Position numbers and translations under genes: made by a program. Source: Bilabrum cf. latius (Eukaryota). Taken from it: a DNA stretch of 64,000 bases. The notes below the pieces were generated by a model. The model was not told the origin of the DNA. It saw nothing but the letters and a program-made list of their open reading frames with translations, and did not search any database. The stretch is from positions 1,426,001-1,490,000 of the forward strand of contig OZ237739.1 of NCBI GenBank assembly GCA_965178125.1, written 5' to 3'. Position 1 is the first letter of the stretch. Each line of letters begins with the position of its first letter. Shown one piece after another: positions 196-63,249 of the stretch.

Positions 196-822
196 ATGGC
201 AGCGACTGCGTCGTCTACCCCTGCAAGTGCAACATCATCAACTTCTTCTAGTGTTCTTGACGAGTTCAAGGAATAGACCTTGAACGATGCCTTAAAGCGA
301 GGGCACGACGTTGTGTTTCTTGACGTTGCGATTGCCGGCAAGAAAGTAGGCAGAATAAAGATTGAGTTGTTCAACTCAGTGACACCAAAGACAGCAGACA
401 ACTTTAGACAGTTCTGCACCGGCGAATACAAGAAAGGAGGCCTCCCAATTGGATACAAGGGGAGCAAGTTCCATCGCGTAATCAAGGATTTTATGCTATA
501 GGGCGGAGATTTCATCAAGGGAAACGGTACGGGGAGCCTATCCATTTATGGCTCGCAATTCGATGACGAGAATTTTAAGCTCAAGCACAAGACCGGTGGG
601 ATGCTCTCAATGGCAAACACTGGGCCGGGAACGGGCACGAACGGCTGCCAGTTCTTTGTTACCACCGTGCCTTGCGAGTGGCTGGACGGAAAGCACGTAG
701 TGTTTGGGCGGGTTTTGGACACTGAAAGTATGAAGGTAGTCTCCATGGTGGAGAACATCCCGACGAAGGGCAGGGACGTACCGGTGCATGCCGTAGAAAT
801 AGTTGAGTGCGGACAGCTGTGA
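196..822 (+). CDS. PPIH: Peptidyl-prolyl cis-trans isomerase, cyclophilin H-like; two in-frame TAG (274-276, 499-501) read as Gln
   Basis: ATG 196 to TGA 820-822 in one frame. Motifs [32 protein letters not shown][TAG]GGDF, SMANTG..NGCQFF and [15 protein letters not shown] 499-501 sits at the invariant active-site Gln of FMxQGGDF. Confidence 0.93.
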
Positions 823-1525
823 ACTTCGTTGAACATGGTACGAAGGTAGCGAATAGAATGACATACACGAGTATGTCGTAAACTTGGGGCATTGGAGCAT
901 TGGGTGAGGCGAGGGGTGTTGTGGCTCAATTCTTCCTTTCCCTTCAGGGGCTGATGTTGGTGCTGGGCGAGGAGACCTCCGCTGCCTGTCCCCCCAGCTA
1001 GGGCAACCACGACCGTGACGCTGTGGCAGCACATTGACGTACTTCTTGGCGATAGCTGGTTCCTTATGCGAGGTATCTAAGGATGAATCACGTCAGGAGG
1101 TCCAGAACGCAAGCCAGCCTCGGCTGCGGCCACTGCCGGGAGGGCACGGATCGACGGCTCGGCTTATGTTACGCATCCTGCCCGCCTTTAGACAGCTGCA
1201 GAGATCGACGACCAGACGCACGATGGCGGCTGCGCCGTCAGGCAGCCTGAGGAGAGTTCTCCGAGCAGTGTGGGGCAGCCGCACGCCTGGAAGACCTCTG
1301 GTGGAGAACGAACGGGGCGAATTCCAGCATTACACAACGTCAAAATTGTCACTGGCTGCAATTAATTTCCTGCCCCGCGCGAACAACCACTAACATGTCT
1401 CGCATTAAGAGCCAAGTTGGCAATCATCACCATGGTGCACCGCTGTGAGCGCGCCGTTACCACACAGTAAGCAACGCTGCAAACTAACTAGCACAAACGA
1501 GTGCACCCGAAGCAATTTCAACAGC

Positions 1526-4500
1526 ATGAATTTCCTTAGGGCTGCGGTCAGTGGGAAGAGATAGCGCCTGAAGGATGGCGACTACGACCTGGACTTGACC
1601 TACATTACTGATCGGCTCATTGCAATGGGATTGCCTGCCTTCGGCATGGAGGGGATGTATCGGAACGATGGGACAGAAGTGAGCCGCTTTTTAAGGGAGA
1701 AGCACAGGGATGCAGCTTGGATTTGCAACCTTAGCGAGAGGCTGTACGACAAGGAGCTCTTTGACAATCGCGTGAGCGAGCTAGGTTTCCCGGACCACCA
1801 TTCACCTCCATTAGAAATTGCTTTAGGAAATCTATATGCTACGGAATCATGGCTGAGAGCCGGCGAGGCGAACGTTGTTGTAGTGCACTGCCTAGCCGGC
1901 AAGGGCCGCACAGGCGCGATCCTGGGGGGCTTTCTAGCGATGATAGGCACCTTTGCGTTCGAGCCAGTGCGACCCGTGCCCGGAAAATCCCTGTCCGACT
2001 CGTGGTGCGACGCCACTGGCGAGTTTCACGACGTGTTCCGCGAGCTGCTGCCCCCGCACGTCGAGAGCGACGAGCCTGACGCCGACGGAAGCAGCGACGC
2101 AACCGGCTTGCGGACGCCGGCCGGCGCGTCGCGAGCCAGGTGGGTGCTCAGCCCGCAGCGACCCGGGGGCTATGGCAGGGCGGGCCTTCTCTCGCTGGTT
2201 ACGCCAAGCGCGATGAAGCAGTCGAAGCGCCTGACCCTAGCGGCGCAGATGGCGGCCGAGGGTTTCATCGACGACGAGGGCGAGGTCGAGGACGAAGAGT
2301 CGAAGGGGCAGGGCGTGGAGATGGGGCCGGTAGCCGCGTCGGGGAGCAGCGGCGCCGCGCACTCCGCGGAACCGATGGCCCGATGGCGGCTAGCGCACCC
2401 CCATCGAGCTGCCTGCATGTCGCTCCGCGCCTTCCACGTCAGGAGGGGAGAGGGGGTCACCTACGCGGCGCAGACACGGACCGTCACGCAGATTGCCTTC
2501 GCGGCGCGCGCGTGCATGCGGAGAGCAGCGATGCAGGAGCTGCCCCCGGGGCAGGTGCACCTGTGCGGTCACCCACCCGAGGAGGACGGAGGCGGGGGCG
2601 CGGGGGCGGGTGCGGGTGCATCGCACTGCGGATCCCCGCGACTCGCGCGCGGCGGTGACGTCCCCTGCCTGGAGATAGACGCGACGCCGGCCCAGCTGGA
2701 GGCGGTGCGGGCCCGGGCGACGAGGCTGTTCCGGTCCACGCCCCTCGCCGCTCCCGCGCGCAAGGTGCGGCTGCTGGCGGTGGAGATCGCGCTGTGCCCG
2801 CGTGTGACGAGTGGGCGGCTGCACCCCTACCTGACGATCCGCAGCACGCCCCACCAGCGCGAGGGCAGGCAGGGCCGCGTGTTCTACAACTCGGCATGGG
2901 ACTGCGCGGGCAGGCGGCTCGGCAGCTACAGCCCGCCGGAGCGGGCCTTGTTCGACGCCGACTCGGGAGACGCCTGGCGGGGCGTGCTGATGGGCAGACG
3001 AGCAGCCGCGGGGGCCGGGATCAGGCCCAGGGGCTCATCCTCCTCCTCCTTGTCCAGGGCGTCAGACGCGAGCGGCTTTACGCCTGACGGGATGCAGGAG
3101 GCGAGGGCTAGGGCGAGGTCTGCCACCGCGGGGACGGGGACGGCCGCGGCGGAGGTGCTCAGGCGGTGTGACGACCACGCGTCGCCGATGCGTAAGGCCT
3201 CGTTCGTGTTCCGGCTAGGGGGTCCCGGGGGTGGCGGGGCGGGGGCGAGGGATGCGGGTGCATGGGAGCAGGGCGCGGGGTGCGTCGTGGACGGGGACGT
3301 GACGGTGCGGCTTGTGCACCAGCCGGGGCCAGAGGGCGCTCTGGAGCCGGGTGGTATCGTGGCTGCGGAGCCGCAGGAGCTGTGCCGCTGGACGCTGCAT
3401 ACGAACTTGATGCATACGGAGCGCAGCTTCAGCCACGCCAGTCCCGCCGACGGCAGCGTGCAGCGCCGCACGGTGTATCGCCTGGGCGACGTTGACATGG
3501 AGGGCAGGAAGGGAAGCATCAACGCGTTCCATCCTGCCTTCCGTGCGGACGTGGTGTGGCAGTACGAGGACGAGCAGGAGCAGCGGTTGGAGGAGGAGGC
3601 AAGGGGCGAGAGGGAGAGTGAGGCGCAGGCGGCGGGCGGGGCGCTGGCTGCCGCGATCGGAGGCGGCAAGGCGGCCAAAGTCGCACCGGGTGACGCCTCG
3701 GGGGGCGAGCATGAAGAAAGTGCCTCGGGAGGCGAGCACGAAGCAAGTGCCCCGGTTGCGGAGGAGGCAAGCGATCAGGCAGCCTCTTCCATGGACCAAG
3801 CTGCTAGCGCCACGTTCGTGGACATTGGTGACGAGGACGAAGAAGGGGAAGGGGATGGGGAGCACGCGGGTGCTGCTCGAGATGGCGGTAAAGACAAACA
3901 CGAAGGCAAGGCCGAGACTGGTGGTGCGGATAGTTCAGGCAAGACGGACGGCAAGGTAGTAGGCGCATCGTCGCGTGCTCCTGTCGAACGGTCTGGGACA
4001 AGTCATGCCGTCCTCGCAGCAGCAGAGGAAGGTGAAGTCGAGGAAGGAGCGCCTGCCAAGGCCAGATCAGATGCGCTTCGTGTGGCGGCGGCGGGCCACG
4101 CCAGAGCGCAAGAGCAGGATGCAGCTCGCAAAGAAGAAGCGAAGCGCGTGGCTGGCAGGTCGGCAGCAGCGGCGGCAGCCGGGGCTGCCGACCGGGCTGC
4201 AGGAGCAGACGGAACGCCGCCGGACAAGGGAAGCGGCTCAAGTGTTGCCTCCAGCCAGGCGGCCCGCCCCCCGACGCAGAGCTATGGCCCGCCGTCGAGG
4301 CAGCCCCTGCCCCTGCCCCGGGCCCGGGCCCCCCTCGTGGCGCGAGGGGGGCTCGCTGCTGCACACGGCGTGCTGGAGACTCTGACGGAGGGCAGCATCG
4401 CCGAGCTGCTGCAGGGAACAGGACCCATGCCCAGGGGCGGGGGGCCTGCGGGAGGGCTGGCGCACGGCGCTGGAGTTGAAGGAGTCGCCCCCGATGACCG

Positions 4501-4963
4501 AAGCGAGATGGGCCCAGAGAGAGGCAAGGGGGATGGCCAGGGCGGATCCAAGGGTCGCCGGGGGCTCCTGCCCTCTGCAGGGAAGTGGGTGCCCCGGCAC
4601 TGGGTGCTGCGGAGGTGCGTGCTGTACAGCTACCGGTCTCCCCTGGACGCTGTTCCCTGGGAGGGTCTTCCCCTGTCTGACGTGGTGGGGCTGGGGCGGG
4701 CGCCTGCCTCTGTCGTGGGGTAGGGCAGGATTGGGATCCAGCTGACTCTGCGGTCTGCCGCGGGCTCGGGGCCGCTGGGCACCGCTGGTTTCTTTGGAGG
4801 GGAGCGGCAGCTGGTGCTGCGGTGCCCTGCGGTGCGAAGAGGCGAGACCGGGGATTCCGTGGCTGATTTTGAGAGGTGGTTCGTGGCGCTTGTGACCGCA
4901 CACGCGGCAGTGACCGCGCTGAGGCACCGACCTGGGGCCAAGCAGGGCCGTAGCGGGCGGTGA
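1526..4963 (+). CDS. PTEN/TPTE-like phosphoinositide phosphatase with long low-complexity inserts, C2-like region and C-terminal PH domain; TAG at 1562-1564 and 4721-4723 read through
   Basis: N-terminus VSGKR[TAG]RLKDGDYDLDLTYITDRLIAMG matches the PTEN start. FPDHHSPP loop and P-loop HCLAGKGRTG are present. The C-terminal KWVPRHWVLRRCVLYSY...LPLSDV...DFERWFVALVTA resembles a PH domain and is complete only if TAG 4721 is read. Ends TGA 4961-4963. Confidence 0.82.
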
Positions 4964-5327: not shown

Positions 5328-6640
5328 TCAGAACTTGGCCTCGCTGCCCAGCTTGATTCTCAGCTGCTCGAGCATGTCGTCCGTCATGCGGTCCAGGTCG
5401 TACTCGTGCGACCAGCCCCAGTCCTTGCGGGCCGCCGAGTCATCCAGGCTCTGCGGCCACGTGTCTGCGATGGCCTGCCTGTCGTCCACCTCGTACCCTA
5501 TCTCGAATGAGGGGATGTGCCGCTGGATGGAGCGCGCGACGTCCTCGGGCCCGTAGCTGACACCCGCCATGTTGTAGGTGCGCTGCGAGAGGCTATCGCT
5601 AGGTGCCATCAGGAACTCCGCGGTGCCCCTGATGCAGTCGGGCATGTACATCATGGGCAGGACAGTGCCCTCCTGCAGGAAACTAGTGTACTTTGCCTTT
5701 GCCAGCGCCTCGAAGTACACCCACACGGCGTAGTCCGTGGTGCCCCCGCCGGGCTCCGTCTTGCTGCTGATGATGCCGGGGTATCGCAGGGATCGGAAAT
5801 CGGTCCCGTACTTGGCGTGGTAATACTCGCCCAGCAGCTCTGCGTAGATCTTGCTGATGCCGTACACAGTCGTGGGGCGCATTACGGTCAGGTCCGGGGT
5901 GTTCACCCGAGGGGTGGTGGGGCCGAACGCGCCGATCGTTGAGGGGATAAAGACTCTCATGTCGTTTTCCCTAGCAATATTCAGAACATTTTCGCTGCCA
6001 CGCGTGTTGATACGCAAGGCCAGCTGGGGATCGCGCTCCCCCACGGCGGACAGGATGGAGGCAAGGTGAACAATGCAGTTCACCCTGTTCTCCAGCACGA
6101 CACGCTTCATCATGTCCTGGTTGAGGACATCACAGTACACATAGGGGCCATCATTGACTTCCTTGTTATCGCGGGGCAAAGCCTTGATGTCCGAGGCGAT
6201 GACGTTGTCGTCTCCTAGCATGTTGCGAAGATACGGTACCAGCTCCATCCCCACTTGGCCGCCTGCGCCCGTCACCTGCGGGCAGAAACTCAATGATTTT
6301 AGCTTGTTCGTGAGCAGGGTCCAAGAAGACTGACAAAGAAGGGCGCCAGAGCGCGTATACTTGATAGCTCCGAAGCTCAATGTGCAACCGAAGACTCAGG
6401 CGCGACATGCTCAACGCAGTCATACACTGGGGGCGTAGTAATAGTACTAGCACATACTTTGCTCACAAGGACTCTCATCTTCCCGTTGTCTCCCCTGTGC
6501 TTGCCTTCTCCAGGGTACATTTGGTCAGTCGCTTCGACCTCTGCTGCGGCAGAAGACATCCAGCGCGGGACACCCGTGCACCTTCTAGTCACGGTTCTGA
6601 GCATTGATCCAGTCCTAGCGATTCGGGCCAACCTGTTCAT
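5328..6640 (-). CDS. TDH: L-threonine 3-dehydrogenase (SDR/epimerase type), probably mitochondrial; join(complement 6467..6640, 5328..6275)
   Basis: The spliced product gives [12 protein letters not shown] (Rossmann motif), [24 protein letters not shown] and YPGIIS...[10 protein letters not shown]. The Arg-rich N-terminus resembles a transit peptide. Ends TGA. Confidence 0.9.
6276..6466 (-). other. Spliceosomal intron (191 nt, GTGAGC...CCCGCAG), phase 0
   Basis: Canonical GT-AG ends. Removal restores the [13 protein letters not shown] motif in frame. Confidence 0.85.
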
Positions 6641-6857
6641 GATGCTGGTAATCGATGGTGCGCGGTGCAAAGGTTTTGAGATGCTCGCCCCGCTAGCGGT
6701 TCGGCGAGGCACAGGGCTTCGGCGAAGGGCGATGACGAGTCATCGAGGCACTCCCGTGTTGTTGGCTTAGTTCTTCTCATATAGGCCCAAAAGCACGAAC
6801 AATAAGCTTTCTCACAATAAAATAGCGAACTTCCTCGCTTCGAAGCGACCTCATGCC

Positions 6858-9000: not shown

Positions 9001-10324
9001 TCAGTGCTCCCACGCAGTCACGCACCAGAGATCATCGTGCAGCTTGTCGTCCAGCCCGCCCGAGTATCCGCTGAACCCGCCGAACAGAAGCACCCGGGAC
9101 GTGGTGGCTGCGGGGCCCTGCGGCCCCTGGCACTTGAACACTGCCACGCCGCCAGGCCCGTAGCCCCCCGCGGGCCCGGACTGCCCCGGTGCCAGGATGG
9201 TGGTCTGGAAATAGTCCCTGGCCTGAGGCTGCCCCTGCCCTGGCTTGAACACGGGCTGCACCTGCTCCGTCCAGTTCTGCTTGCCCACGCCCCCCGCCTG
9301 GAAGGGGAGGTCCAGGTTCCAGAACCCGCCCAGGTAGGGCGAGTCCTCGCCGCTGCTCGACTGGCCCCCGAACACGATCACGTGGCCCTCGCCCTGCCGG
9401 GTCACGGCGGACGGCCACACGCCGAGTCCGTGGGAGGGCGCGGGCTGCGGCGCCGAGGGGGAGGCGGGCTTGTACGACGTCCAAACGAGCGTCCTCGTGT
9501 CGAGCACGAACGCGTCTGCCGTGTCCTCGCCCTGTGCGTCGGAGCCGCCCACCACCACAAGCGCGGGGTCGTACCCCACCGTGGTGCCGACGGTGGCGGC
9601 GTGGCCCACCCTCGGCCCCGGTCCGCCCTTGGTCTGGGTGCTGGCCTGCAGGAGCTTCCAGGCTCCCGAGGCCGGGTCCAGCGTCCACAGGTCGTCCAGC
9701 ACCGCGGTCTGGTTGCGGCCCCCGAACACGTAGATCAGCTGGTCTCCGATGACGTTGTAGGTGGACGTATGGGAGCCGCGAGGGGGCAGCGAGACGGCGG
9801 TGGATGGCTTCACTTCTCTCCAGCTGGCCTGCACGGGCGGCTGGGAGAGCTTCAGCTGCCACACGTCGCCGAGGAAACCTTCCACGATGGAGCTACCTCC
9901 GATCACGAACATGGTACCGTCCTAAACGGCTGTTGCCGTGTGATACAGCCGAGGGCCTGGGGCTTCTTTCGGCTTCGAATCATCGTCGTCTTGCTGAGGC
10001 TGGGCGAGCTCGGTCCAACCAGTCCCGTTGTGCAGCCACAGGTCGCTCAGAGGAGCATAACAGCAGCTTGAAGAGCATCCTGCATGCACAACCTGCAAGT
10101 ATCAGGCACGATTTATTCAAAGATGCTGTGTACACCGGATGATTGAGACATGGTAGGCCAGGGAAACGATATCGCCGCGGTCTCACCAATCCCTGTTGCA
10201 ACACGGTAGAGGCGGCTCCAAGGCGCTTTGATGGCTTGTTGTTTCCCTAAGGCTAAAGATCAAAATAATATGTAACCTCTGCAGCGGCTACAGAGAATAC
10301 TATCGCACTCAAAGCGGTAAGCAT
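9001..10324 (-). CDS. Secreted kelch-repeat (beta-propeller) protein; join(complement 10187..10324, 9001..10092); TAG at 10253, 10247, 9922 read through
   Basis: Signal peptide MLTALSAIVFSVAAA. Repeated kelch motifs: PGPRLYHTATAV..MFVIGG..DVW, PPRGSHT..IYVFGG..DDLW, PGPRVGHAAT and LLFGG..DDLW. Ends TGA. Confidence 0.82.
10093..10186 (-). other. Spliceosomal intron (94 nt, GTGAGA...TTGCAG), phase 0
   Basis: GT-AG ends. Removal gives PSKRLGAASTVLQQGL|VVHAGC, a plausible first kelch blade. Confidence 0.7.
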
Positions 10325-10479: not shown

Positions 10480-12678
10480 ATGGTAGATCCAGCGAATGTT
10501 GAGCAGGCCAATAAGCACAAAGACGAGGGAAATGGCTTTTTGAAGGCGAAGAAGTTTCATGAGGCCGTGGAGGCCTACTCAAAGGTAAGCAGATCCGTTC
10601 CTGACCTATGGATGCCTGCATTTGCCCAGCTTTAGATCGTATGAATGGACGTATAATGCACCATAGCTCTATCATGCATGAGTTCGTGCCTGGTAGAGCG
10701 GGGCATGCTTCATCTGCTGCGGTGCGGTCCCCAGTCGTGTAGTGCCCGTGGCAGCCACGTGTACCACGGGTTCCTCATGGGTTTTAGTCGCTCAGACCAG
10801 GTTGGTCATTGATTCGTTCCAACTTGTTCGTTTAAGTCCGAAGGAAGCATTGGCATGGTTGATGCTCTAGTGTGCTTGGTCCCCATCAGCGATGCCTGAG
10901 CTTGGCCGAGTTACTGCAGCATCTCTGCCCTCTATCATGCCCTCCATGTTTTACGTTGAATGGGTGCCCTCACGGTAGCGCAGGCGATTTCACTGAACCC
11001 ATTGAATCATGTTTTCTACTCGAACCGGAGTGCCGCTCTTCTGAGCTTAGGAAAGGCCGAGAAAGCGCTGGAAGACGCCACTTAGTGCGTGGGAATCAAG
11101 CCAGACTGGGCCAAAGGATACGGCCGAAGAGGCGCTGCTCTGTACGCGCTGGAGCGCTTTGATGATGCGATCAAGGCGTACGATGAGGGCCTCGGGCTGG
11201 ACGCATCCAACAAGCAGCTGGCCTCGGGCAAGGCGCAGGCCGAGAAGGCGCAGGTGTAGAGGAGCGCAGCCGCCAACCCCTTCGCAACGCTGGGGGCATA
11301 GCTGTCTGCCTCCCCGAAATTCCGGCAGTGGATGGAAGAGGACCCTTAGTTTAAGGCCAAAGTAGACCTCCTTGAAAAGACGGGCGTGTCGGGGCTGCAG
11401 ACGATGGTACAGATGGGCATGCAGGGGGGCGGCATGGACGAGAAGACTGGGGCGCTGCTGGAGGCGATCGGTCTCAAAGTGGGCGACGGGGAGGGGGCGG
11501 CGGGAGGAGGGGCTGGAAAGTCTGCGGCCGAGCGCGCCCGGGAGGAGGAGGAGGCGAGGAAGAGAAGAGATGCCGAGGAGGAGGAGAGGAAGAGGAAAGA
11601 GGAGGAGGAGAGAGAGGCGGCGATGAGCCCAGAGGAGAGAGCGGAGCTGCAGAGAAAGAGAGACGCCGCAGCCAAGAAGGAGGAGGGCGTGGCACTGTAC
11701 AAGCAGCGCAAGCTGGAGGAAGCCTTCGCCAAGTTTCAGGAGGCCAGAGACCTGGATCCGACAGACACGCTCTACCTGCTGAACCAGGCGTCAGTGAGGG
11801 TGGAACAGGGCAAGCCGGAAGATGCACTCGCCATCTGCGAGGAGGCCATCAAGCACGCCGGCGAGAACGGCGCGTCCTTCGCGGTGACTGCCAAGTGCAT
11901 GGCGCGGAAGGGCGGCGCGTACATGAAGATGGGCAAGTTCGAGGAGGCGGCCGCTGCATTCGAGGACTCGCTGACTGAGAGCGACGACCGCAAGGTCAGG
12001 ATCAGGTTCAAAGAGGCCAAGAGGCTGGCCAAAGAGGCGGCTGCCAAGGCGTACATCGACCCTGAGAAGGCTGCCGAGGCCAAGGAGCGGGGCAACGCCC
12101 TCTTCAAGGAGAAGAAGTTCCCAGAAGCCATCGAGGAGTACACCGAGGCGATCAAGCGAGACCCCGATAACGCCACGTACTACCACAACCGGGCACAGGC
12201 ATACCTCAAGGTGGTGCGCCCGCAGTAGGCCCGCGATGACGCCCAGCGAGCGATCGATAGAGACCCCAAGTATGTGAGGGCGCACGCGCGGCTGGGATAC
12301 GCCCACATGCAGCTGAAGGAGTACCACAAAGCGATCAAGGCCTTCTCCACGGGGCTAGAGTACGACGAGGCAAACAAGGAATGCAAGCAGGGCTTCATGG
12401 ACGCGGAGAGGGCCATCCAGAGCGGCATGATGGCGAGCGGGGCGGGGGGGGACCCGGACGCGGATAAAGAGAGGATGGCGCGGGCCATGCAGGACCCCGA
12501 GATCCAGGGCATCGTGTCCGATCCGCTGGTCGGCATGGCGCTGCAGAGGCTGCAGCAGGGGCCCGAGCAGGCAGCAGAGGTGCTCAAGGACCCGAGCATG
12601 GCCGCGAAGATTCAAAAGCTAATCGCGGCTGGCGTCCTGCGGATGGGGGAGCAGCCCGCCGCTGGCGGGGGCATGTGA
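10480..12678 (+). CDS. STI1: Hsp70-Hsp90 organizing protein STI1/HOP (TPR1-DP1-TPR2A-TPR2B-DP2); join(10480..10584, 10984..12678); five in-frame TAG
   Basis: KDEGNGFLKAKKFHEAVEAYSK|AISLNPLNHVFYSNRSAA, PDWAKGYGR, YIDPEKAAEAKERGN and a DP2 ending AMQDPEIQGIVSDP...KIQKLIAAGVL. TAG at 11083, 11257, 11299, 11347 and 12226. Ends TGA. Confidence 0.92.
10585..10983 (+). other. Spliceosomal intron (399 nt, GTAAGC...CGCAG), phase 0
   Basis: GT-AG ends. Removal joins TPR1 helices in frame. Confidence 0.85.
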
Positions 12679-18600: not shown

Positions 18601-18809
18601 ACCACCGATGGCACGAGCGCGAATATCCCTAGAACGAGCTGCACAGCCACGAGGGCTGACGCACCTGGGTTAAGCAAGGGCGCGCGTGAATGGCAGGAGT
18701 AGGAGGCCACCTCCAAGATGTGAAGGGAGTGCATCAGCACGGTCGTCAGCACACCAAGGGCATACACACTGGTTGCAAACCACAGAGGGAGCAAGGATCC
18801 CTTGCAGTG

Positions 18810-20210: not shown

Positions 20211-20250
<40 letters not shown>

Positions 20251-21298: not shown

Positions 21299-21327
21299 GT
21301 GCAGCAATGGCCCGATAGCCACCATGA
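19021..21327 (+). CDS. Insertion-encoded ORF of about 768 aa with no recognisable domain (possibly a gag/ORF1-like retroelement protein); runs off the element and stops in host sequence
   Basis: ATG 19021. Track ORFs 19096, 19684, 20086 and 20626 are all in this frame, separated only by TAG (19081, 19447, 19660, 20056, 20299, 20518, 21136). Contains an acidic tract and a poly-Ser tract. First TGA is 21325-21327. Confidence 0.62.
20212..20250 (+). repeat. (AGC)13 microsatellite encoding poly-Ser
   Basis: Direct reading of the sequence. Confidence 0.9.
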
Positions 21328-26294: not shown

Positions 26295-26305
26295 CGCTCC
26301 AGGCG

Positions 26306-26350
26306 GTAGCGCCGCGCGCCTACAATAGCGTGAGCGGAACCTAATTTGGC
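26306..26350 (+). repeat. Left 45-bp terminal inverted repeat
   Basis: Exact inverted match to 29522-29566. Confidence 0.93.
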
Positions 26351-51600: not shown

Positions 51601-54600
51601 TGGAAGGCCTGATGTTGGCCTGGGACCGTTGTAGCCCCGAGCTAGCCCCTCCTGCGCCGTCGGTCCCACCCCAGACTGCACCCCCTGTGGCCCGGGGGTT
51701 CCACCGCCGACGTGCCTATTCAACGCCACAGTGCGGTGCCCCACAGAACTAAGTGCCCCCATGTTTGCACCCTCACTTGCTCCTGTCTCCTCAAACCCAT
51801 CGGTCAGCATGGGCCGGGAAGCGGAGGATGGGGAGGAGGAGGACTGCGGCTCAGCATTGGCATGCCGCGAGCCGAACCTGCGCTCGCCTGGGGGCGGGAT
51901 CCGGAGCTGCGGCGGGTCCTCCCGGAGCTCACCCCCTTCCTCGCTTGCTCCCTCCTCGGCCTTACCCCCAAACTGATGCCCCCCAGTCTCGGCCTCGCCC
52001 ACGCCCCTCTCCCCCACAGGCGTCCTCCTCAGGCTGGCGGGGCTGGCGTGCACCCTGGGCAGGGCCGTCATGGACCTGTCCTTTAGCATGCCGGCCCCTC
52101 TCCCACCTTTCGCTCCACTGACCCCTCTTGTTCCTTGGGCCAGGGCCAGACCCTCGGAAACGGTGCGACCCGGGTAGGCCCGACCGGCGGCCCCTCCCTG
52201 CGACAGGTGCATGCCCACGGGCCCGAGTGCCCTTGCCCCCGCACCCGTGGCCTCATCTGCAAGGAGGCCCATGGCGTAGTACGGGCTGGGATCCGAGGGA
52301 AGCAGCGTCTGACCACGGGCAAGCTGCACGCGGAACCGGCTTACGTCGGGGCGGCGGTCCCACCCGCCCGCCCTCGCTGCCACGGTCAGAGCCAGCTCGT
52401 GCTCCTGGTCGGTGCGCGCCAGCCTGAGCCGGTCTCTCTGCTGCGGTACCTGCGAGTCTCCCGCCAGCACGCCGTCCTTTGCCCTGGCCCTGGCAGAGGG
52501 TTCCTCCAGCGACAGGCCCGAGCCAGGGGCAGCCTGCGCCCAGCCCCACCGGACAGCCACCAGCGCCCTGCTGAGCCCCCGGCCCTGCCACGCGCCCCCC
52601 TGACCCACCGCCCCGTCCACACCCCCGCCCTCGATGGACTCAAGCACCCCACGCAATCGCTCCGCCCTGTCCCTGGCCCGCTGCTCGGCCATCTCGTGCA
52701 GCGAGTCCGCGGCCCCGCGAGGTGCCCCGCGGTCGCTGCCATGCACCGCACCACCGTGCGATGCACCGTGGCCAGACGCCCCCGCCGCAACGCCGGTGGG
52801 TGCCGCCAGAGCCACGCTCGTGGCACACGCCGCGGAGAGCAGACCAGAGGCGTCTGCCCTGCACAGGACTCGCCAGCGCTTCGGCAGCGCCAGGCCGCCG
52901 TACCCCGACACTGCACTGGCGAGCGCCGCGCCGTCCGCTGCAGCAGACGCGTCCACGGTGCGGCATATCGCGGGCGTCTGCGAGAAGCTTGACGACTGCC
53001 GGCCACTATCCTCCTCCATTGTCTGCCTCCTCCCCACGGCGGGGTCCTGCCCTCCTGGGGTGCTCCCCGCACCATGCGTCCAGCGGAAGCCGACCAACGT
53101 TTGAGATCCACGGAACCCCGGGGAACTTTCCTCGGGGCCGCCCGTACTCGTCGAATAGGGCGTTTCGGTGGCGAGCGGCGGTCGGTTCCCCCCTGCCGCC
53201 TCCCCGCGAGGCAAGGCATCCTCGGGCCCGAAGGAAACGCCGCTGCTTGCATCCACCTGTGCCCTGGAAATGGCTCGCCGGGTGGGCTCGTCCAGGTTGA
53301 TCGATGCACCCGTCGCGACGGCGGATCCGCCCGTACCCCTGCCGCTACCGCTGCCTCGGCTCTCCGCGCCACCGCCGCCGCTGCTGCTGCTGCTGCCAGC
53401 TGCCCCCCCGAGACCCCCACGGGACAAAGACCCTGCCCCCAGGAGGGCCCCCTCCTGCGACCCCACCGGCGCCGTCATGCCCCCCACGTCCACCACATAC
53501 CTCCGGAGACGGTCTGCTGCTCCATCGCCGCCCCCCTGGCCGTTTTCAGCCTGGACGTGCCACCCCGGGCCACCTGTGGTGCCCAGCCCCGCCAGGTGCA
53601 GTGCAGGTTGGTGTGATGCTGTGCGGGTATTGGTGCCATCTGCCTCCTTTTGTGTTCCCTGTACACTGCTCGCGCCCGCCCGCCTCCATAGAGCGGCGGC
53701 CCACGGTACGGGTGGAGGCGCGCCCTGGCGGTGGTGGTGTCTGCGGCGCTGCATGCGGTGTCGGTCTGCTGCAGCACCACCTCCTCTGCTCTGGTTGCTG
53801 GCCCTGGACAAGCGATGCCTGCTGGAGCGGGAGTGTCTTGGGGACCTGGATCGAGACCGAGACCGGCTGTGCCGTGGACTGCGGCTGGCAGACGATCGTC
53901 TGGATTCCCTTGACTGCCTCTGATGTGCATGCATGCGGGAATCTGCCCCCGTGTACGTGGGTCGCGTGGAAGCGGGGTATACCCACCAGTGCCCGGGCAC
54001 GGGCATGCGTCCAAATAGGCCATGGACGCCGGTGGAGGAGGACTCGAAGGGCGGTGCACCGTGGGTACCACGCCGGGACACAGCCGAGGAGGAGGAAGCG
54101 GGCGCCAGCTGCTCTCGAGGCAACGACAGGGACATGGTCCCACCCTGTTCCTCTCCGATGGAGGAACCGACTGCGGTCGACCCATGCACCCCGGAGCCAT
54201 CCAGCAAAAGGCGCAGTCGCCGCAGCTCCTCCTGCCCCAGCGTGCTCCTCGCTGACAGTCGGTAGTAGTACTGCGCCAGGAGGGGGAGCCTACCGGACAT
54301 CTCGTCCTCCCCACCGGGGCTCGATCCCGCACCCGCCCCACCAGAACCGCGCCCACTCAGGGCCTCACCCTCCCCGCCGGGCCTGGCGAGACCCCCCGCA
54401 TGAGCAGCCTGGCACAGCCCGGGCACCCACCATGAGGGAGCCGGGTCCACGAGCACCGCTGCCAGCAAAGTGGCCATCCCAACAGAGTCCCGGGTCGAGC
54501 CTAGGACACCGCCCGCTCCTGCTCCCCGTGCAGAACCAGCCGCATCCATCCCGGAACCACGACCGCCGCGCGAACCGTCCAGCCGCCTGTCTTGCCACCC

Positions 54601-56604
54601 TCCCCTCTCGCCCTCGCTCTGGTCCAAGTCCTGGTCACTGTCCTCCTCCTCGTCCTCCTGCTCCTCCTCGTCCTCCTGCTCCTCCTCGTCGTCATGGTGC
54701 TCCCACTCGCTCTGCATCGCTGCTGTTTCTGCGGCCTGCACGGCCTCTCTCTCCAGTGCGAAAGCCGCATGCTCGCTACTGGGCGCAGGGAGAAGCACCT
54801 CCCGGAACAGCCGCGCCACCAGCGACCGATCGCTACCGCTCTGGCCGGTGGCCGCCGCAGCTGCTGCAGACCCCTCCTCCTCCTCGATTTGCGCACGGGC
54901 AAGCGCGGAGGTCTCGCCGCCCGAGCCTACGCCAGTGCCGTCGTGTTTCGACTCCGAGCCGCGCCACACGGAATCTCCTTGGTCCTATTCCCCCCCCTCC
55001 TTCTCCCCAGGGGAATACCCCGTGGCTGCCCCTCCAGACAAAGGTGTGGAAGGCGGCGGGGACAGCCTTCTCCTGCTCCTCCTGCTCGTTCTTTTCGTCC
55101 TGCTGGCAGCTGCAGCGTGTTTTTCAGGCACTGCTTCTTCCTCCCCCCGGGATCGTGCGCCCATGGGCAGCTGGGCGCAGATGTGCGCCGCCGCCGCGCC
55201 CTCCAGCAGCACGGCCACGAGGTTGCTGAGTGCACCCGCGTGCCGCAGCAGACAGGCCACTTCCGCCCGCCTCCGCCGATGCCTCCTGTTCAGCCGCACC
55301 CTAAGCCGTTTCATGCGACCCACCCGGCGGCTCATGGCAAAGAACTTCTTCAGCTTGCGCCTGTACCTGCGCCGCACCGTCTTCCGATCCCTTGAGCTGA
55401 GCTCCACCCCTGCCGACCTGTCCTGCAGCACAGCGGGCTTCCTGGGTGCCTTGGGCGCGGGAGGGATGCGCGGTGGGGGCGGCGGCACGTAGCAGCGGGC
55501 TGCAGCCATGGCCGCAGACATGTCCGCCACTGCTGCAGGCAGGACGTCCCCGTCCAGGAGAGCGAGCCTGCACCGCCGATCAGCCGCCGCCAGCCGAGAA
55601 AGGGCGCCGACGGCCAGCGTGCATGCCTCCAGCGAGGTGGCACCCCGCACGGCACCTAGCGCGCGCTCCAGCACCCCTGCCACCCCGTGGGCCGGGGCTG
55701 CATCCAGTCTACTGCGCGGTGCATCTGCCAGCGGGGCGCGGTACCCATGGCGACCCTCCCCGCCGCTGAGAGCCGCGCGCAGGGACCTCCACGAGGCCAG
55801 CGCGGGCGGTGGGCTCAGGTCACAGGCCCACGCAGGGGCAGATAGAGAGGAAGCCGAGGGCCGAGCTCTCGCGCCCTGCCAGTGGTGTGTGGGGATGGCA
55901 GTGGTCGTCGGCAGCCGCAGCACCCTGGGGATTGCAGCCGTCCTGCCGCCGATCCACGCGTCCTGGCAGTGGAGGCCCAGTCGTTGGGCGGGCTGCAGGG
56001 AGTAGAGATGCAGGGGCAGGCCCCATCTGGGAGAGGGGCGCCAGGGCTGCAGCACGACGTGCTCCGCAGAGGCCGGCTTCCCATCGGGCCCCTGGAGGAA
56101 GGGGGCTCCGTCCATGGGGGCGAGCACCGCGCCAACGTGCTGCCAGCTCACGAGCAAGGCGCTGCGGGAGCGAAATATCTCAGACACTCTAGGGGGAGGG
56201 TCCATCGATTCGGCGGGAGGGGCGAACCCGAGGCCCAGCCGGCTCGGGGGATGATGCTGCTGCTGCTGCCCGTCGGTGCCGCCTTGGTCGACTCCACGAC
56301 GCTACATGTTCACGTTGCTACCACTGGAAGACCTTGCACTGGTTCTTGTTTCGTTCATGCCTGCCCCGCCAGGGAATGAAACGAACAGTCCAGCATCTAG
56401 CACTGCAATCGCACAAAACCGGATGGCTGTCGGGTCGTCGCTCTGCGTCGCGCCCCAGGAATCGTCTCTAAAGTCGGCCAACAGGGAAGCAGTCACACAT
56501 CGTGACCCAATCAGAGCTGATCGGCTGCTGAGGGTGCGGCTCAAGGCTGCAGGGTCTCCTAATCGGTTGGGCTGCAGCAGTGCAAGCGCCTCTCGCGCAG
56601 ACAT
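45661..56604 (-). CDS. Giant hypothetical protein (3647 aa), mostly low-complexity with short helical/ARM-like islands; ten TAG
   Basis: Track ORFs 56302, 54985, 51052, 49783, 48304, 48007, 46369 and 45763 are all in one frame, separated only by TAG. ATG 56604 is preceded by an in-frame TAA. Ends TGA 45661-45663. Confidence 0.75.
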
Positions 56605-56907
56605 TTACGTCGATTCGTTTGGTACCCAAGGCGCAATTCTGCACAGGACACAAATCAAACTACTCGTACTGCTAATGGTGTGGATTTCGTGTCGTATCTC
56701 AGTTTGATTTGCAAAATCTTTGGTGCGACCAACGGTAACGAAACGCAGAGGCTGCAAGCGAACCAGGAACGAAACAAAAAGGAACTGCGGCAGTAGCCGC
56801 AGCGGGTAGAAGGGCAGTTCCGGGAAGCCTCCGCTGCCAAACAAGTGAACCTGTTGAATTCTGTAGCGCTGCATCAAGTAGAAACGTGGCTGGACTGTGT
56901 AGCTGCT

Positions 56908-57567
56908 ATGTCTACCTTCGATGACCCATTTTTTAATACCGACGACGGCGACGCTGACGACGGAACTTCGGCCGAAGGGCTACCAGATTTCGCCATTGGT
57001 ATCTTTGCGGCCGTTGGTGTGATCTTCGTTTGCCTGGTAGGTTTCACAATTTATCGCATGGTCAGACACTTCGCGCTCATCCGCCAAATGTTCGCCATGC
57101 AGGGGGGGGTGGTAGAGGCATACGAAATGCAACAACGAGTCAATGCCGGAGCTCAAGTATATGTGGTTGGAGGAGCGGGAATAAATGGCCAGGTTTCATA
57201 GAGCAACCCATCCTTCAATGCGGCTACTGGATAGGTCCAGCCAACCCCCGTCCCCCAGATATCGTACGCCGCGCCAACAGCACTCGGCCCGTTCGAGCGA
57301 CTTGCCGTCTCGCTGTCCACCGCCCCTACAGAAGCAGATCTTAGCAGCATAATGCAGCAGATATTGGAAATTGTATTAAATGATTAGTTTCACAAGCCTG
57401 GCGATGCCCGCAACCGGCTGCTGGGCAGCAAGCTGGCCGGCACTGTGCAACACGCCGGTGCGTGGACTCCGGCCAACGAGGCTGCGTTCGAGAAGGTGCT
57501 GGCCAGCCTGCCCCCCGACTCGTTCCGACCACCGGATCAGCCGGACTACTCCGCAACTTTTGCCTGA
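56908..57567 (+). CDS. Single-TM protein, tandem array copy 1 (C-terminus truncated or frameshifted relative to siblings)
   Basis: MSTFDDPFF acidic N-terminus, TM, and shared domain FERLAVSLSTA...KPGDARNRL..SKLAG...PPDSFRPPDQPDY. TAG at 57199, 57232 and about 57384. TGA at 57565 comes before the family tail. Confidence 0.65.
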
Positions 57568-58106
57568 GCAGGCGCAGTAACTGGCAGCTCAACTAGCGGG
57601 GGAATGGACCCGGTGGGGCGCATGGGCATGGGCATGGGCATGGGCCCGGGTAAGATGGTCGGCGGCATGATGGGCGGTTGAAGGGTTGGGGGCGGCAAAG
57701 GCGTTACTAGGATCATGATTCCTGGACCAGCCGGGCTGGGTATTCCGGGGACGACTCGGAGTGAATTCGTTCGATGAGGGCCTGAGCAGCCCCCAGGCTG
57801 CCAGTGGTGTGGTCCGATGTTGCCGGTGGTGTTAACAGGTGGTGCATGCGCTGGTTGCGTCTCGGACGCGTGATGGGTGCGGCGGGGTCGCCGATGCAAG
57901 ATATTGTCATCAATTGCACCGCAATGGAGTTAAGGCGATAGCAGCCCAATGCGATCACCACCCCCTGGCCATCATCGGTGGATTCCCATCGCCGCGACCG
58001 ACCGGAACCGGCTGCTGTGTGTTCCGAGATTTCGCGGGAAAGCCCGGCACCCTGTTTTCCCCTGTTCGAAGCAACTTGTATTCACCCGAGGTTTACTGCC
58101 TGATTC

Positions 58107-58904
58107 ATGTCAACCTTTGACGATCCATTTTTCAACGATGATGGTGGAAGGGCTGAAGACGCGCACAATGAGGCCAAGAAACGAATAGAGACCGCCATCA
58201 CGATTGCAATAGTAGTGTCTAGCATTATTGGCGGTCTGATGGTATTGTGTATTGCATATGCAATAATATCGAGTTGCTTGAGCCAGCAGTAGCCCGTGAA
58301 TCCCGATGCAATTCAGTTGTCGCCCGACGAAATGGAGCGTCGGGTCACTTCCGCAGCCCCGGGGCAAGGGGTGGGTGGCACGCAAATCAACGGCCAGGTT
58401 TCATAGAGCAACCCATCTTTCGATGCAACTACCGGATAGACTCAGTCTTCCTCTGTTCCCCGGTCGCCATATGCCGCCCCAATAGCTCTCGGACCGTTCG
58501 AAGGACTCGCCGTCTCGCTGTCGGCTGCATCAACGGAAGCAGATCTCGATCAAGCGCTACAAAAACTAGATATCGTACTAAGGAATCATTCCGTGCAGAA
58601 GCCAGGTGATGCCCGCAACCGGCTGCTGGGCAGCAAGCTGGCCGGCACCGTGCAGCACGCCGGTGCTTGGACTCCGGCCAACGAGGCTGCGTTCGAGAAG
58701 GTGCTGGCCAGCCTGCCCCCCGACTCGTTCCGGCCCCCGGATCAGCCAGACTATGCCGCTGTATTGTCGCAGCAGGCGCAGCGGCAGGCGTACTCGGGGC
58801 AGGGCACGGGTGTGGCGGGGAGCGACGGGGGCAACAACGAGGGGCTGTGGGGAGCTCCGCAGGCGGGGGGGGGTGCTGCCGTGTCGAGCGGGTTCCTCGT
58901 TTGA
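58107..58904 (+). CDS. Single-TM protein, tandem array copy 2
   Basis: MSTFDDPFF, TM, three TAG, shared domain, ends SSGFLV-TGA. Confidence 0.78.
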
Positions 58905-59318
58905 ACGATACTGTCCGTAGCGGGTATGCTCCTGACAGTCGTGTGCACGTTGCAGCGCACCAGTCACCACACACTGGCAGGGTGTTCGTTGGCTATGCAA
59001 TGCTGGCAGTCCCGCTGCTGGCGGGGCAGTCGCGTCTCGAATGACAGCTGCAAGCATTCGGTTGGTCGGCTCACACGCTGACATTCATTTTAATAGTCGT
59101 CTTTCCTCGCGACGCTCATTATCTGCCCCGGGCCAGGCACTCTCGAACGCCGATTCCCCCGCCGGGCCGGCGGCGGCTCCGAGCCGCGGCAGACTGCCAG
59201 TCACTGGCAGTGATTTGTTTCTCCTCTTCGCGCCACCGAGACTCACCCAGTGCTTGCCCGGTCACTAATCCCCCCGAGCCCAACGATTGCCTTTCAAGGG
59301 CTTTCACGAGACTCTTTG

Positions 59319-60446
59319 ATGTTTGACGATGACGATCCATTCCAAGACGACGATCCATTCCAAGACGACGATCCATTCCAAGATGATGGCCCAGACCCTG
59401 GTGCTGTGGTAGGCAGCGTGGTTGGTAGCATGACCGGCCTCGTGTGCTGCTGCGGGATCATTGGAGTAATTGTATATTTTGTTTGTATCAGGCCTGGCTA
59501 GCAAGCAAGGATGCGCCAAACGGCAAGGCCAAACGTGGTGGTGCACACGAACGCAGTGAATGCAGCGCAGCATGCCCAGACACAGCAAGCGCGGCAGGGC
59601 CAGACCGATTCATACTAGCAGTTCTTTGGTAATCCGGTAGCGCAGCCTGCCTAGCACCAGCAGACGCAGTCCTACAGCGGCCACGTGCCCCAGTCGCCGT
59701 ACGCCCAGCAGCCGCCATCGATGGGCCGTTTCGAGCAAGTCGCCTTTTCGCTGTCCACGGCCTCCTCTGACGAAGAAGTGAATAAGCTGCTGCAGCAGCT
59801 GCGGCAGGTCGTGTCGGACCCTTCGGTGCAGAAGCCCGGCGATGCCCGGAACCGGCTGCACGCGAACAAGCTGGCGGGGTCGGCACAGCACCCGGGCGCG
59901 TGGGGCGCACTGAACACGTCTGAGTTTGGAGAGATCATCACGATGCTGCCGCCGGACGCGTTCCGTCCCCCCGGGCAGCCGGACTACGAGGCGATCGCGG
60001 CGCAGCAGGCGCAGCAGCAGGCGTACTCGCTGTCTGGCGGGGCTCCTCCGCCCCAGCCTCAGCACCACCACGCTCCATCTGCTCCTGCGGCAATGGGGGC
60101 CGGCATGGCGGCGTCACCGTACGGCGGGCAGGGCCAGGGCCAGGGCCAGGGCGTTCCGCCATATGGTATGCAGGGTGCCCCCACTGCGCCTGCTGGCGGT
60201 GCTCCAGCGTACCCGGGGATGGGCGGCGCGTCGCCTTACCCGAATGGGACGGGCATGGGCGGTGCTGGGAGTGGACCCGCGCCGTATCCGTTCGATGCAG
60301 GGGCAGGGGCAGGGGCAGGGGCAGGGTCTCCGTATCCGCCGGGTGGGCTAGGGGTGGGAGGGGTGCAGGGGCAGGGGGGTGTGCCCTACCCGACGGGCCC
60401 TGCACCGGGCACTCCTGGTGGCTCGCACGTGAGCGGGTTCGTCTGA
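59319..60446 (+). CDS. Single-TM protein, tandem array copy 3, with long Gly/Pro/Tyr tail
   Basis: MFDDD(DPFQDD)3, TM containing CCCG, three TAG, shared domain, ends VSGFV-TGA. Confidence 0.8.
59331..59384 (+). repeat. 18-bp tandem repeat x3 (GACGATCCATTCCAAGAY) encoding DDPFQD
   Basis: Direct reading of the sequence. Confidence 0.9.
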
Positions 60447-60799
60447 TCCACCAGCCCTTGAGGTGTGGTGGTTGAGTGCTGCATGTTTGTGGAGGCTGGC
60501 TGACCTCCTGACTGAAATGCGGGAAAGAGAACGACTGTTGTGTGTATCTGTGTTCCTATGCGACTTCTGCGAATCTCACTAGCGAGGGTGCTGTGGGGTG
60601 GCCAGCCAGTTTCCCGGAAAGATCGGAGAAACCGAACGTTCGACTCGAAAACCGAACCGGAACGTGCGACCTGACGCTGCAGAAGGAGGTTCGGCAGAAG
60701 ATAACAAAACTAATTGGCATTGACAGGACACCAGTCAAGTACAGAAGAAGCTTCGGGTTGTTTTCATTTCCTTCTCAACTACAGATCAACGCTGCTCGT

Positions 60800-61729
60800 A
60801 TGTCGAGCTTTGACGACGATTTTTTTAGAGATGACGACGATACATTTGCGGACGATCCCGATGAGGACACTGGAACGGTTGTTGGAGGTGTGATTGGAAG
60901 TCTAGTCAGTCTATTGTGCTGCTGTGGTATTATTGGTGGTATCGTGTATTTTGCGTGCATCAGGCCGGCCCAGATTTCTTCTGCTGTTCGGTCGCAATAG
61001 TAGCAATAGGCAACCGCTGCAGCGCAGGCACAAGCCGCCAGTGCAGGGCAGCCTCATCATTAGCAGGGACAAGTAGCAACAAAAGATTAGTTCTTTGGTA
61101 ATCCGGTAGCGCAGCCTGCCTAGCACCAGCAGACGCAGTCCTACAGCGGCCACGTGCCCCAGTCGCCGTACGCCGAGCAGCCGCCATCGATGGGCCGTTT
61201 CGAGCAAGTCGCCTTTTCGCTGTCCACGGCCTCCTCTGACGAAGAAGTGAACAAGCTGCTGCAGCAGCTGCGGCAGGTCGTGTCGGACCCTTCGGTGCAG
61301 AAGCCCGGCGATGCCCGGAACCGGCTGCACGCGAACAAGCTGGCGGGGTCGGCGCAGCACCCGGGCGCGTGGGGCGCACTGAACACGTCTGAGTTTGGAA
61401 AGATCATCACGATGCTGCCGCCGGACGCGTTCCGCCCCCCCGGGCAGCCGGACTACGAGGCGATCGCGGCGCAGCAGGCGCAGCAGCAGGCGTACCAGCC
61501 GCAGCAGCCTCAGCACCACCACGCTCCATCTGCTCCTGCGGCGATGGGGGCCGGCATGGCGGCGTCACCGTACGGAGGGCAGGGCCAGGGCTACGTGTAG
61601 GGGGCACAGTCGGTGCCAAACGCACCCAATGCACCTGTGTACCCGGGGGCAGGGACAGGGTCGGGGGGCGCCGCACCCTACCCGACGGGTCCATCGCCGG
61701 GTGGGCATACCACCGGGGGATTCGTGTGA
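60800..61729 (+). CDS. Single-TM protein, tandem array copy 4
   Basis: MSSFDDDFF, TM containing CCCG, CAA-TAG-TAG-CAA-TAG run at 60995-61009. About 400 bp are nearly identical to copy 3. It reaches the family terminus TGGFV-TGA only through TAG 61598. Confidence 0.8.
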
Positions 61730-61848: not shown

Positions 61849-61869
61849 GGGGGGGGGGGGGGGGGGGGG
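61849..61869 (+). repeat. G21 homopolymer
   Basis: Direct reading of the sequence. Confidence 0.85.
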
Positions 61870-62490
61870 CACTTCTCAATGCAACGCAGCAAAGTTTGGG
61901 CTCGCACCGAGGCAGCCTGGGCCTCGCACTTCTTTCCTGACTCAATCAGTCTGATTGTCACTCTGCGCTTGTTGGTGACACAATACGCAAAGAATCGCTG
62001 GTTTCACCACCACGAGCTGGAGAAATGACGGTTCAGGCAATCCAGCTGGCTGCTCTCACTCCCGCGTTCTACAAGGACACTCCATCCTGCAGCCTTATTG
62101 CTGCTGCCATCTTGCGAAGGCTTGGCCTCTCAGGTGCGCTCTCTCAGTCTCAGATTAGTTGCTGAGAGTACAGGGCTGCAACATGGATCTTCGGCAGTGA
62201 GCTCCGAGTCAATGTAGCGATTACGAGTTGGTCTGGGGCATAGCAATGGGGAGGTGGTGGTGCTCTGGACCGCATTGCCGCCGCAACCGCAAAACGAAGC
62301 ACCTACAAATCCATTCACTCCCGAGACGAACCGGAAGGCAACAAGACTTGGCGTGGGTCTTCCAGTCCGTGACTGTAGGCTGTCCGTGAAGTTTTACATA
62401 GAAAACACGACTAAGATGAAGGATTGGTATCCGGGCTGTCATGCATGAGAGCAACGGCGGGCCCTTTCAGCTATGGTGTGGAGCTGCCGC

Positions 62491-63249
62491 TCACTTGCCC
62501 TCTGCCTCCCCCTCTTTGCTCTCCTCCACGCCCGACTCGGATGCTTCCACGCGGGCCTTCTTCGCCGGGTCCTCGCCGTCGGCGGGCCCGTCTGCGGCAC
62601 GCTTCCCCGCCTCGGAGGACGCCCCTTCCCCCGCGCCCCCGGTTGCAGCCCCGGCGCCTGCCTCCGCCTCCTTGCTCTCCCCCGCGGCAGCTCCGGCACA
62701 GTCTACCAGCTTCGTCACCACTTCTTGGACGTACTGTTTCCTTGCGTCCATGCTGTCGCATGGGCGGTTGTATGGCGTCCACACTGGCTCACCGACAAAG
62801 AGGCGCATAGCCTGGATGAAGTTCTTCTCATCCAGCGTAAACCTGTGGTAGATACCCGCAGGGAGCACGATCATGTCGCCCTTGCCCATGGCAATACGGA
62901 TCCATTTATCATTCTCGTCGCGGACGTCGAAGTATCCTGTTCCATCCAGCACAAGACGGATCTCCTCGTCGGTGTGGATGTGCTCCTCGAAGAACGACTT
63001 GATCTTGTTCTCATAGTCCGGGAGCGTGTCGGGATGGCACGTGATCTAGTCATTGTATGTGTATCCTCGTTCTGTTCTAATCTTGTTGAAAGTTTCGTCT
63101 TTCTCAAGGTCATCGACCCCGAGTCCCTCCCACGCCAGCACCCCTAAAGCCTTCAGCTTGTCCTTGCTAACTGGGGCGTTAGGAGACAACTGATGCGGCT
63201 TCCGCTGATCTTCAGAGCTATCATCCATATACCAGGCTACGATCGGCAT
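62491..63249 (-). CDS. ADI1: Acireductone dioxygenase (methionine salvage) with Ala/Glu-rich C-terminal extension; TAG at 63046
   Basis: AWYMDD..DQRKPH, RGYTYND[TAG][54 protein letters not shown] and [17 protein letters not shown]. Ends TGA. Confidence 0.93.

Follow-up and report, generated by a model that had tools for sequence, protein, structure and literature searches.

The triplet TAG is almost certainly translated as a sense codon in the nuclear genes of a 64 kb stretch of DNA from Bilabrum cf. latius (contig OZ237739.1 of assembly GCA_965178125.1, positions 1,426,001 to 1,490,000), referred to below as the window. Sequence comparisons indicate that, of all residues, TAG is best matched by Gln, and a genetic code in which UAG specifies Gln, with UAA and UGA as stops, is very probably the one in use. 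The analysis is based on the window, on public collections of proteins and sequencing reads, and on published papers.

The GC content of the window is 61%, and it reaches 0.68-0.70 over 48-56 kb. The genes form a eukaryotic set that includes a PPIH-like cyclophilin, STI1/HOP, ADI1, an NAD-dependent epimerase, a kelch-repeat protein, two very large kinases, and several lineage-specific open reading frames (ORFs). Twenty ORFs, which cover 84% of the window and contain 18,070 codons, were analysed. They were defined as stretches between TAA or TGA stops in which TAG was treated as sense, and an end in TAG is therefore impossible by definition. The 20 ORFs contain 115 in-frame TAG codons (0.64%), close to the rate of 0.72% in the off-frame readings of the same genes. 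In-frame TAA and TGA codons are absent, whereas 369 would be expected from their off-frame rate. Because the frames are bounded by TAA and TGA by definition, the informative points are the length of the ORFs and the completeness of the genes that have homologues.

The longest ORF under the standard code encodes 1310 aa. When TAG is read as sense, the longest frames extend to 3647, 3055, 1936, and 1280 codons, and reading TAA as sense leaves the ORF lengths almost unaltered. The ORFs of 3647, 3041, 1890, and 1267 codons exist only if TAG is read through, and the probability of 3647 codons without TAA or TGA is approximately e^-74. The statement of an earlier note on this DNA that nearly every gene contains in-frame TAG corresponds to 19 of the 20 ORFs, the exception being the epimerase gene. 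The genes for cyclophilin, STI1, and ADI1 are complete, with conserved sequence flanking their TAGs on either side, and Pfam and PDB alignments show that the domains go on downstream. The kinases and the kelch gene are likewise intact around their in-frame TAGs. The earlier note had considered mass pseudogenisation implausible since the conserved genes are otherwise intact, and the absence of in-frame TAA and TGA and the continuation of domains past the TAGs agree with this. Annotation of the organism with the standard code will fragment nearly every gene, and fragments in the protein database indicate that such splitting has occurred already. Exact look-up of ten standard-code ORF fragments in the protein collection found none of them (0/10). 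Stop codons lying between two long open segments were also counted, but this test was dropped, being confounded by the GC-rich background.

In-frame TAGs are also retained in sequences that resemble transcripts. Positions 150-4000 were used to find public sequencing runs; ten runs from five studies hold all or part of this stretch, and four of them (X1, X5, X6, and X10) were aligned on positions 1-20000. Run X1, which may be the source of the window, is DNA-like: its depth is even, at about 9.5, and one of its contigs spans 1-14304 without a difference, except for a skipped repeat at 11539-11611. The depth of X5 and X6 is very uneven, and their transcript-sized contigs are bounded at gene borders. 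Both runs contain the spliced joints 6271>6463 and 10090>10185 (CT..AC, in minus-strand genes), and X6 also contains the STI1 joint 10582>10982 (GT..AG, cut +2). Because of these joints, the contigs of X5 and X6 are taken as complementary DNA. Nine in-frame TAGs are unaltered in them, with no differences from the window in the contigs concerned: two of cyclophilin (X5 contig 189-1380 and X6 contig 192-1352), all five of STI1 (inside X6 and/or X5 contigs), one of the kelch gene (X5 contig 8812-10090), and one of the phosphatase-like ORF, at 4721 (X5 contig 3571-5021). The earlier note had proposed to look for UAG in mRNA, and these nine retained codons argue against editing, splicing-out, and assembly error at those sites. 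Run X10 derives from a relative that is about 90% identical; among 40 of its 837 difference rows, no TAG is affected.

It is extremely unlikely that the TAGs are untranslated, whether as marks of pseudogenes, as errors of sequencing or assembly, through editing of UAG to CAG, or through splicing-out. No support for this explanation was found. Its formal foothold, and a weakness of the transcript evidence, is the uncertain library type of the presumed-RNA contigs: the types of X5 and X6 are a software guess only, X5 is labelled 'probably DNA', and none of the runs containing the stretch is on record as RNA. However, a total lack of in-frame TAA and TGA, combined with a TAG frequency that is similar inside and outside the reading frame, is unlike decaying pseudogenes. 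The same sequence is held by several public runs of different studies, some TAGs are common to paralogues, the domains are intact beyond the TAGs, and the spliced contigs carry their nine TAGs unchanged.

The identity of the amino acid is most directly indicated by cyclophilin. The TAG at 499-501 lies in the context GAT TTT ATG CTA TAG GGC GGA GAT TTC. In each of the three PDB cyclophilin alignments printed, it falls on the Q of FMIQGGDF; the first alignment is to human PPIH (E 4e-69). This Gln, which the earlier note had already recognised in the motif FMxQGGDF, is one that we take to be catalytic and invariant.

Comparison of the window with itself by blastn revealed duplicated segments that are 90-98% identical and provide 992 codon pairs, of which 883 are identical, 66 are synonymous if TAG encodes Gln, and 43 are non-synonymous. 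Five of the pairs contain TAG: three are TAG/TAG, two are TAG/CAG, and there is no other combination. The TAG at 40794 in kinase K2 is paired with CAG 14484-14486 in its paralogue K1, and this is the sole difference in a stretch with 100% identical flanks. The TAG at 41952 in K2 corresponds to CAG 25653-25655 in a partial third copy of the K2 C-terminal region, and TAG 25898 of the third copy corresponds to TAG 41706 of K2. Two further exchanges, TAG 37416 (K2) with CAG 17907-17909 (K1) and TAG 61088 with CAG 59619, are positioned outside the blastn segments and were confirmed by direct reading. The coordinates of all four TAG/CAG swaps listed in the earlier note proved correct, as did those of the Gln runs that include TAG: CAA TAG TAG CAA TAG at 60995-61009, CAG TAG CAG at 35250-35258, and TAG GAG GAG TAG CAG CAG CAG GAG CAG on the minus strand at 46345-46371, within a giant low-complexity ORF.

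A database protein of 367 aa from another assembly (P0002) is 97% identical to STI1 and has Q opposite the TAG at 12226. It ends exactly ahead of CAG 12505, and the simplest reading of this is that the relative has TAG at the position of CAG 12505. A close relative seems to use the same code, with TAG and CAG interchanged at differing sites. Columns of homologues of ORF M, a paralogue of the N-terminal half of K2, contain Q in six of eight sequences at the TAG of residue 542 and in both of two sequences at residue 815. The kelch TAG at 9922 is uninformative on the meaning of the codon, as it falls at variable positions in alignments with PDB kelch proteins.

Three statistics rank Gln first. 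In six paralogue protein alignments, the commonest non-TAG partner of TAG is Gln (11/64), and Lys does not occur (0/64). The partner profile is best explained by Gln; Thr falls behind by 6.6 log-likelihood units, Glu by 29.7, Leu by 37.7, and Lys by 45.6, where the likelihoods use the substitution pattern of the same six alignments. Gln shows the strongest enrichment among residues up to two codons away from TAG (40 observed, 18.8 expected), and it also has the neighbour profile most like that of TAG; His follows at -3.2. Crude log-odds summed over all columns with homologue data are +8.6 for Q, -5.4 for R, -6.3 for K, and -14.9 for L. Comparison of per-gene TAG content with amino-acid content provided no informative correlation (best Spearman coefficient 0.34, for Ile). 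The assignment to glutamine made in the earlier note is thus borne out by the cyclophilin Gln, the paralogue swaps, the 97% identical relative, and the three statistics, within a comparison that covered a small number of conserved columns.

Several observations weigh against a clean reading as Gln. The TAG of M residue 532 is opposite Leu in 8/8 homologues and CTC in K2, ten residues from the Gln column 542. In the five STI1 TAG columns, compared among 119 homologues with about 40% identity, the leading residues are K (65), A (45), K (95), D (55), and E (39), and Gln accounts for only 2-10 of the 119 in each; the two Lys columns are residues 42 (65/119) and 114 (95/119). The TAG of ADI1 is opposite Ile in four of four mammalian chains. 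A relative's protein that is 80% identical to M (P0184) has L, K, and Q opposite the TAGs at M residues 1015, 1090, and 1179. The 11 Gln among 64 partners of TAG, to which four TAG/TAG columns can be added, compare with a frequency of 47% for Gln paired with Gln. Because Gln partners are rarer for TAG than for Gln codons, TAG is located at less conserved sites than CAG and CAA. TAG represents 115-117 of about 840 Gln codons, and we read these data as TAG residing mainly at weakly constrained sites, as would be the case for a minor codon.

Alternatively, UAG could be a sense codon for another residue, such as Leu, Lys, or Glu, or could be decoded ambiguously by near-cognate tRNAs with Gln as one of several products. 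The Leu at M residue 532, the Lys at STI1 residues 42 and 114, and the L and K in P0184 favour this possibility, and there are precedents in a rhizarian with UAG as Leu and a ciliate with UAG as Glu (PMC11687900, PMC5304391). Nevertheless, the alternative is unlikely. It has to contend with the TAG at the cyclophilin active-site Gln, the likelihood gaps to Leu, Lys, and Glu given above, the missing Lys partners, the restriction of high-identity duplicates to TAG/TAG and TAG/CAG pairs, the Gln in the 97% identical relative, and summed column log-odds that are positive for Gln only. The earlier note had named columns favouring another residue as a sign against glutamine; some TAG columns do favour Leu or Lys, but overall Gln ranked first.

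With UAG as Gln, UGA, which is mainly used, and UAA most likely remain stop codons. The 20 ORFs end in TGA in 18 cases and in TAA in two (K2 and the ORF at 29600-32473), although these ends follow partly from the definition of the ORFs, which tempers their value as evidence. The three C-termini that are anchored by homology, those of cyclophilin, STI1, and ADI1, end in TGA at the expected place, and the TAA end of K2 is within about eight codons of the TGA end of its paralogue K1. Internal TAA does not occur in the 18,070 codons of the window, whereas CAA is used 149 times. Since CAA is common while TAA is never in frame, UAA does not stand for Gln in these genes, and the code differs from the common one in which both UAA and UAG (UAR) specify Gln. 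That code (NCBI table 6) was considered for the window and rejected, given that no in-frame TAA is present in the 20 ORFs and TAA ends two of them.

A dual role of UAG, as a sense codon and also as the terminator of some genes in a context-dependent manner of the Condylostoma type, is quite improbable. Codes with context-dependent stop and sense meanings exist, and the way in which the ORFs were delimited leaves no room for a TAG end. However, the TGA ends of cyclophilin, STI1, and ADI1 are at the expected place in all three genes, a small sample, the ends of K1 and K2 in TGA and TAA are only about eight codons apart, and the complete absence of TGA and TAA in frame implies that dedicated stop codons exist.

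Judging from other lineages, UAG would be decoded by a tRNA-Gln with the anticodon CUA, which would be one anticodon change away from tRNA-Gln(CUG), and eRF1 would have lost or weakened its recognition of UAG while keeping that of UAA and UGA. TAG codons may be gained and lost mainly through C/T transitions from and to CAG. A scan of the window for tRNA genes found none, the Rfam scan of the window had no matches, including none to rRNA, and eRF1 is not encoded within it.

On the tree of one gene, STI1, the organism is probably a stramenopile near the bicosoecids. A quick maximum-likelihood tree was calculated from 41 rows, comprising the spliced query and 40 homologues, 21 of them named and 19 unnamed, which were picked by hand among 120 listed. 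Diatoms, oomycetes, and bicosoecids share with the query a clade that has a support of 100 in the Shimodaira-Hasegawa-like approximate likelihood-ratio test (SH-aLRT), and all the named rows of this clade are stramenopiles. Within it, the query groups with Bicosoecida sp. CB-2014 and Cafeteria at an SH-aLRT of 93, beside one unnamed protein. The best identity in the tree set is 43%, and the best STI1 matches are generally at about 40%. Other than P0002, no close STI1 relative is present in the protein collection, and a scan of Joint Genome Institute (JGI) metagenomes with STI1 found no close relative either, the best of the 80 loci kept being 41% identical. The suggestion of the earlier note that the organism is possibly a stramenopile flagellate agrees with this single gene tree at low identity.

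The code matches NCBI table 15 (UAG as Gln; UAA and UGA as stops) and is therefore of a kind already known, but the lineage may be new. According to two reports (PMC11687900, PMC5304391), reassignment of UAG alone to Gln, with UAA kept as a stop, occurs in the fornicate Iotanema spirale, in the ciliate Protocruzia tuzeti, and in two phyllopharyngean ciliates, Hartmannula sinica and Trochilia petrani, and reassignment of UAG alone to Leu and to Ser occurs in an uncultured rhizarian and in Scotinosphaera, respectively. The table 15 lineages (PMC11687900, PMC5304391) resemble the window in that UAG is a sense codon best read as Gln, UAA and UGA are stops, and the meaning of UAG is uncoupled from that of UAA. 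They differ in that the window has 61% GC and TGA as its main stop (18/20 ORFs), whereas UAA is the primary stop of I. spirale (PMC5304391), and in that the STI1 tree leads to stramenopiles rather than to fornicates or ciliates.

Lineages using table 6 (Tetrahymena, Oxytricha, Hexamita, Streblomastix, ulvophyte green algae, and Amoeboaphelidium) share with the window the change from stop to Gln and the presence of TAG in Gln-rich runs and at conserved Gln sites. In contrast to them, only UAG is reassigned here, with TAA out of use inside the frames and in use at two of their ends. The rhizarian exLh code (UAG as Leu; UAA and UGA as stops) is similar in that only UAG is reassigned in a non-ciliate protist, and one TAG of the window lies in an all-Leu column. 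However, Leu is 37.7 log-likelihood units behind Gln here and would displace the catalytic Gln of cyclophilin. TAG also means Gln in the code 15 of crAss-like and other phages, but phage genomes are read in bacterial cells, whereas the window contains eukaryotic genes with spliceosomal GT-AG introns.

A literature search that took in few subscription journals and no supplements found no stramenopile for which nuclear reassignment of UAG is reported. The potential novelty lies in this lineage combined with a GC-rich genome that has UGA as its main stop. The case is a further one, probably independent of those described. The fuller claim, that it is the first nuclear stop-codon reassignment in Stramenopiles and that the UAG-only-to-Gln code arose independently in a flagellate allied to bicosoecids, with a genome of 61% GC, UGA as the predominant terminator, and UAA retained but rare, is offered tentatively, with confidence slightly short of an even chance. 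The present placement comes from one gene.

Changes of the nuclear code are rare, and alteration of UAG while UAA stays a stop is rarer still, with a handful of lineages described (PMC11687900, PMC5304391). A case in a GC-rich, non-ciliate protist is a data point on the uncoupling of UAG and UAA meanings and puts to the test proposals that link code change with base composition and stop-codon usage. By analogy with other lineages, the organism might also offer a natural pair of eRF1 and tRNA that discriminates UAG from UAA. If the stramenopile origin is true, related strains would let a young code change be watched in progress, in a base composition sharply unlike that of most known code-variant lineages.

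Table 1. Features of the 64 kb window (TAG as sense; positions are those of the window)
Feature	Position	Strand	Codons	In-frame TAG	Stop	Matches and remarks
Cyclophilin (PPIH-like)	196..822	+		2 (274-276, 499-501)	TGA	Pfam PF00160, E 1.4e-46; PDB 1mzw, E 4e-69
Long ORF with weak dual-specificity phosphatase-like N-terminus	1445..4963	+		2 (1562, 4721)	TGA	Pfam matches below curated cut-off
NAD-dependent epimerase/dehydratase	5328..6671	-		0		Pfam PF01370; intron 6272-6462
Kelch-repeat gene, 3' exon	9001..10098	-		1 (9922)		Pfam Kelch families; upstream intron 10091-10184
STI1/HOP	10480..12678, join(10480..10584, 10984..12678)	+		5 (11083, 11257, 11299, 11347, 12226)	TGA	Pfam TPR and STI1-HOP_DP; human HOP 7kw7, E 2e-81
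Kinase K1	13122..18794	-	1890	10	TGA	Pfam Pkinase, E 2e-41
ORF N	19021..21327	+	768	8		Without known family; between M and K1
ORF M	21164..24967	-	1267	14		Paralogue of K2 N-terminal half
Partial third copy of K2 C-terminal region	25471..26295	-				blastn 96.7% over 573 bases, 93.4% over 256
ORF	29600-32473				TAA
Kinase K2	33024..42149	+	3041	27 (named: 35253, 37416, 40794, 41952)	TAA	Pfam Pkinase, E 1.2e-42; named TAGs form codon pairs with paralogues
Giant low-complexity ORF	45661..56604	-	3647	10	TGA	Without Pfam match
Four tandem paralogous small membrane-protein genes	56680..61729	+		4, 3, 3, 7
Acireductone dioxygenase (ADI1/ARD)	62491..63249	-		1 (residue 68)	TGA	Pfam PF03079, E 1.8e-52; PDB 5i8s, E 2e-75

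Three spliceosomal GT-AG introns are found at 6272-6462 (minus strand), 10091-10184 (minus strand), and 10585-10983 (plus strand). Each is close to the 5' end of its gene (epimerase, kelch, and STI1, respectively), and simple ORF calls miss the first exons, such as 10480-10584 of STI1. The spliced STI1 product begins MVDPANVEQANKHKDEGNGF..., like HOP proteins. The description of the genome as intron-poor in the earlier note stands in so far as introns are few, but the genome is not intron-free, as three introns are seen in the first 20 kb. Some of its gene details are corrected here: the other TAG of cyclophilin lies at 274-276, the start of STI1 is in the upstream exon, and 10960-10983 is intronic. 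A METTL20-like label given to one ORF is backed by weak methyltransferase matches in Pfam only, and the methyltransferase-like ORF has no match in PDB.

M and K1 resemble two halves of one K2-like gene, between which ORF N sits on the opposite strand. In P0184, the end of M continues directly into the start of K1. A search with M among representative proteins yielded 21 matches, most of them 30-50% identical. When ORF fragments of close relatives were sought with K2, only generic kinases and one fragment corresponding to K1's own sequence were found, and the equivalent search with M yielded a single useful relative, P0184. The third copy of the K2 C-terminal region is without a counterpart of 41229-41563, and its final few codons differ; it may be a gene fragment or a pseudogene.

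The read depth of X1 is 54-192 over 18677-20000, which is 5-20 times that of the flanks at about 9.5, and the depth of X5 is very high there. The raised depth covers the first 1 kb of ORF N, which may be a multi-copy inserted element or belong to a highly expressed gene family. In both X5 and X6, contigs that start at 18817 share the same unmatched upstream letters, ending TGTCAGTTT. These letters could be the border of a repeat element or a leader added to the transcript.

The giant ORF at 45661-56604 is rich in Gly, Ala, Ser, and Arg, lies within the most GC-rich part of the window, and is overlapped on both strands by many long spurious ORFs. Each of the four tandem genes at 56680-61729 encodes an acidic N-terminus, one hydrophobic stretch, and the common block QKPGDARNRL...PPD.FRPP.QPDY; they have no match among Pfam families. 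An inverted repeat of 48 bases, the copies of which are 98% identical (26306-26353 and 29519-29566), flanks the segment between 26.3 and 29.6 kb.

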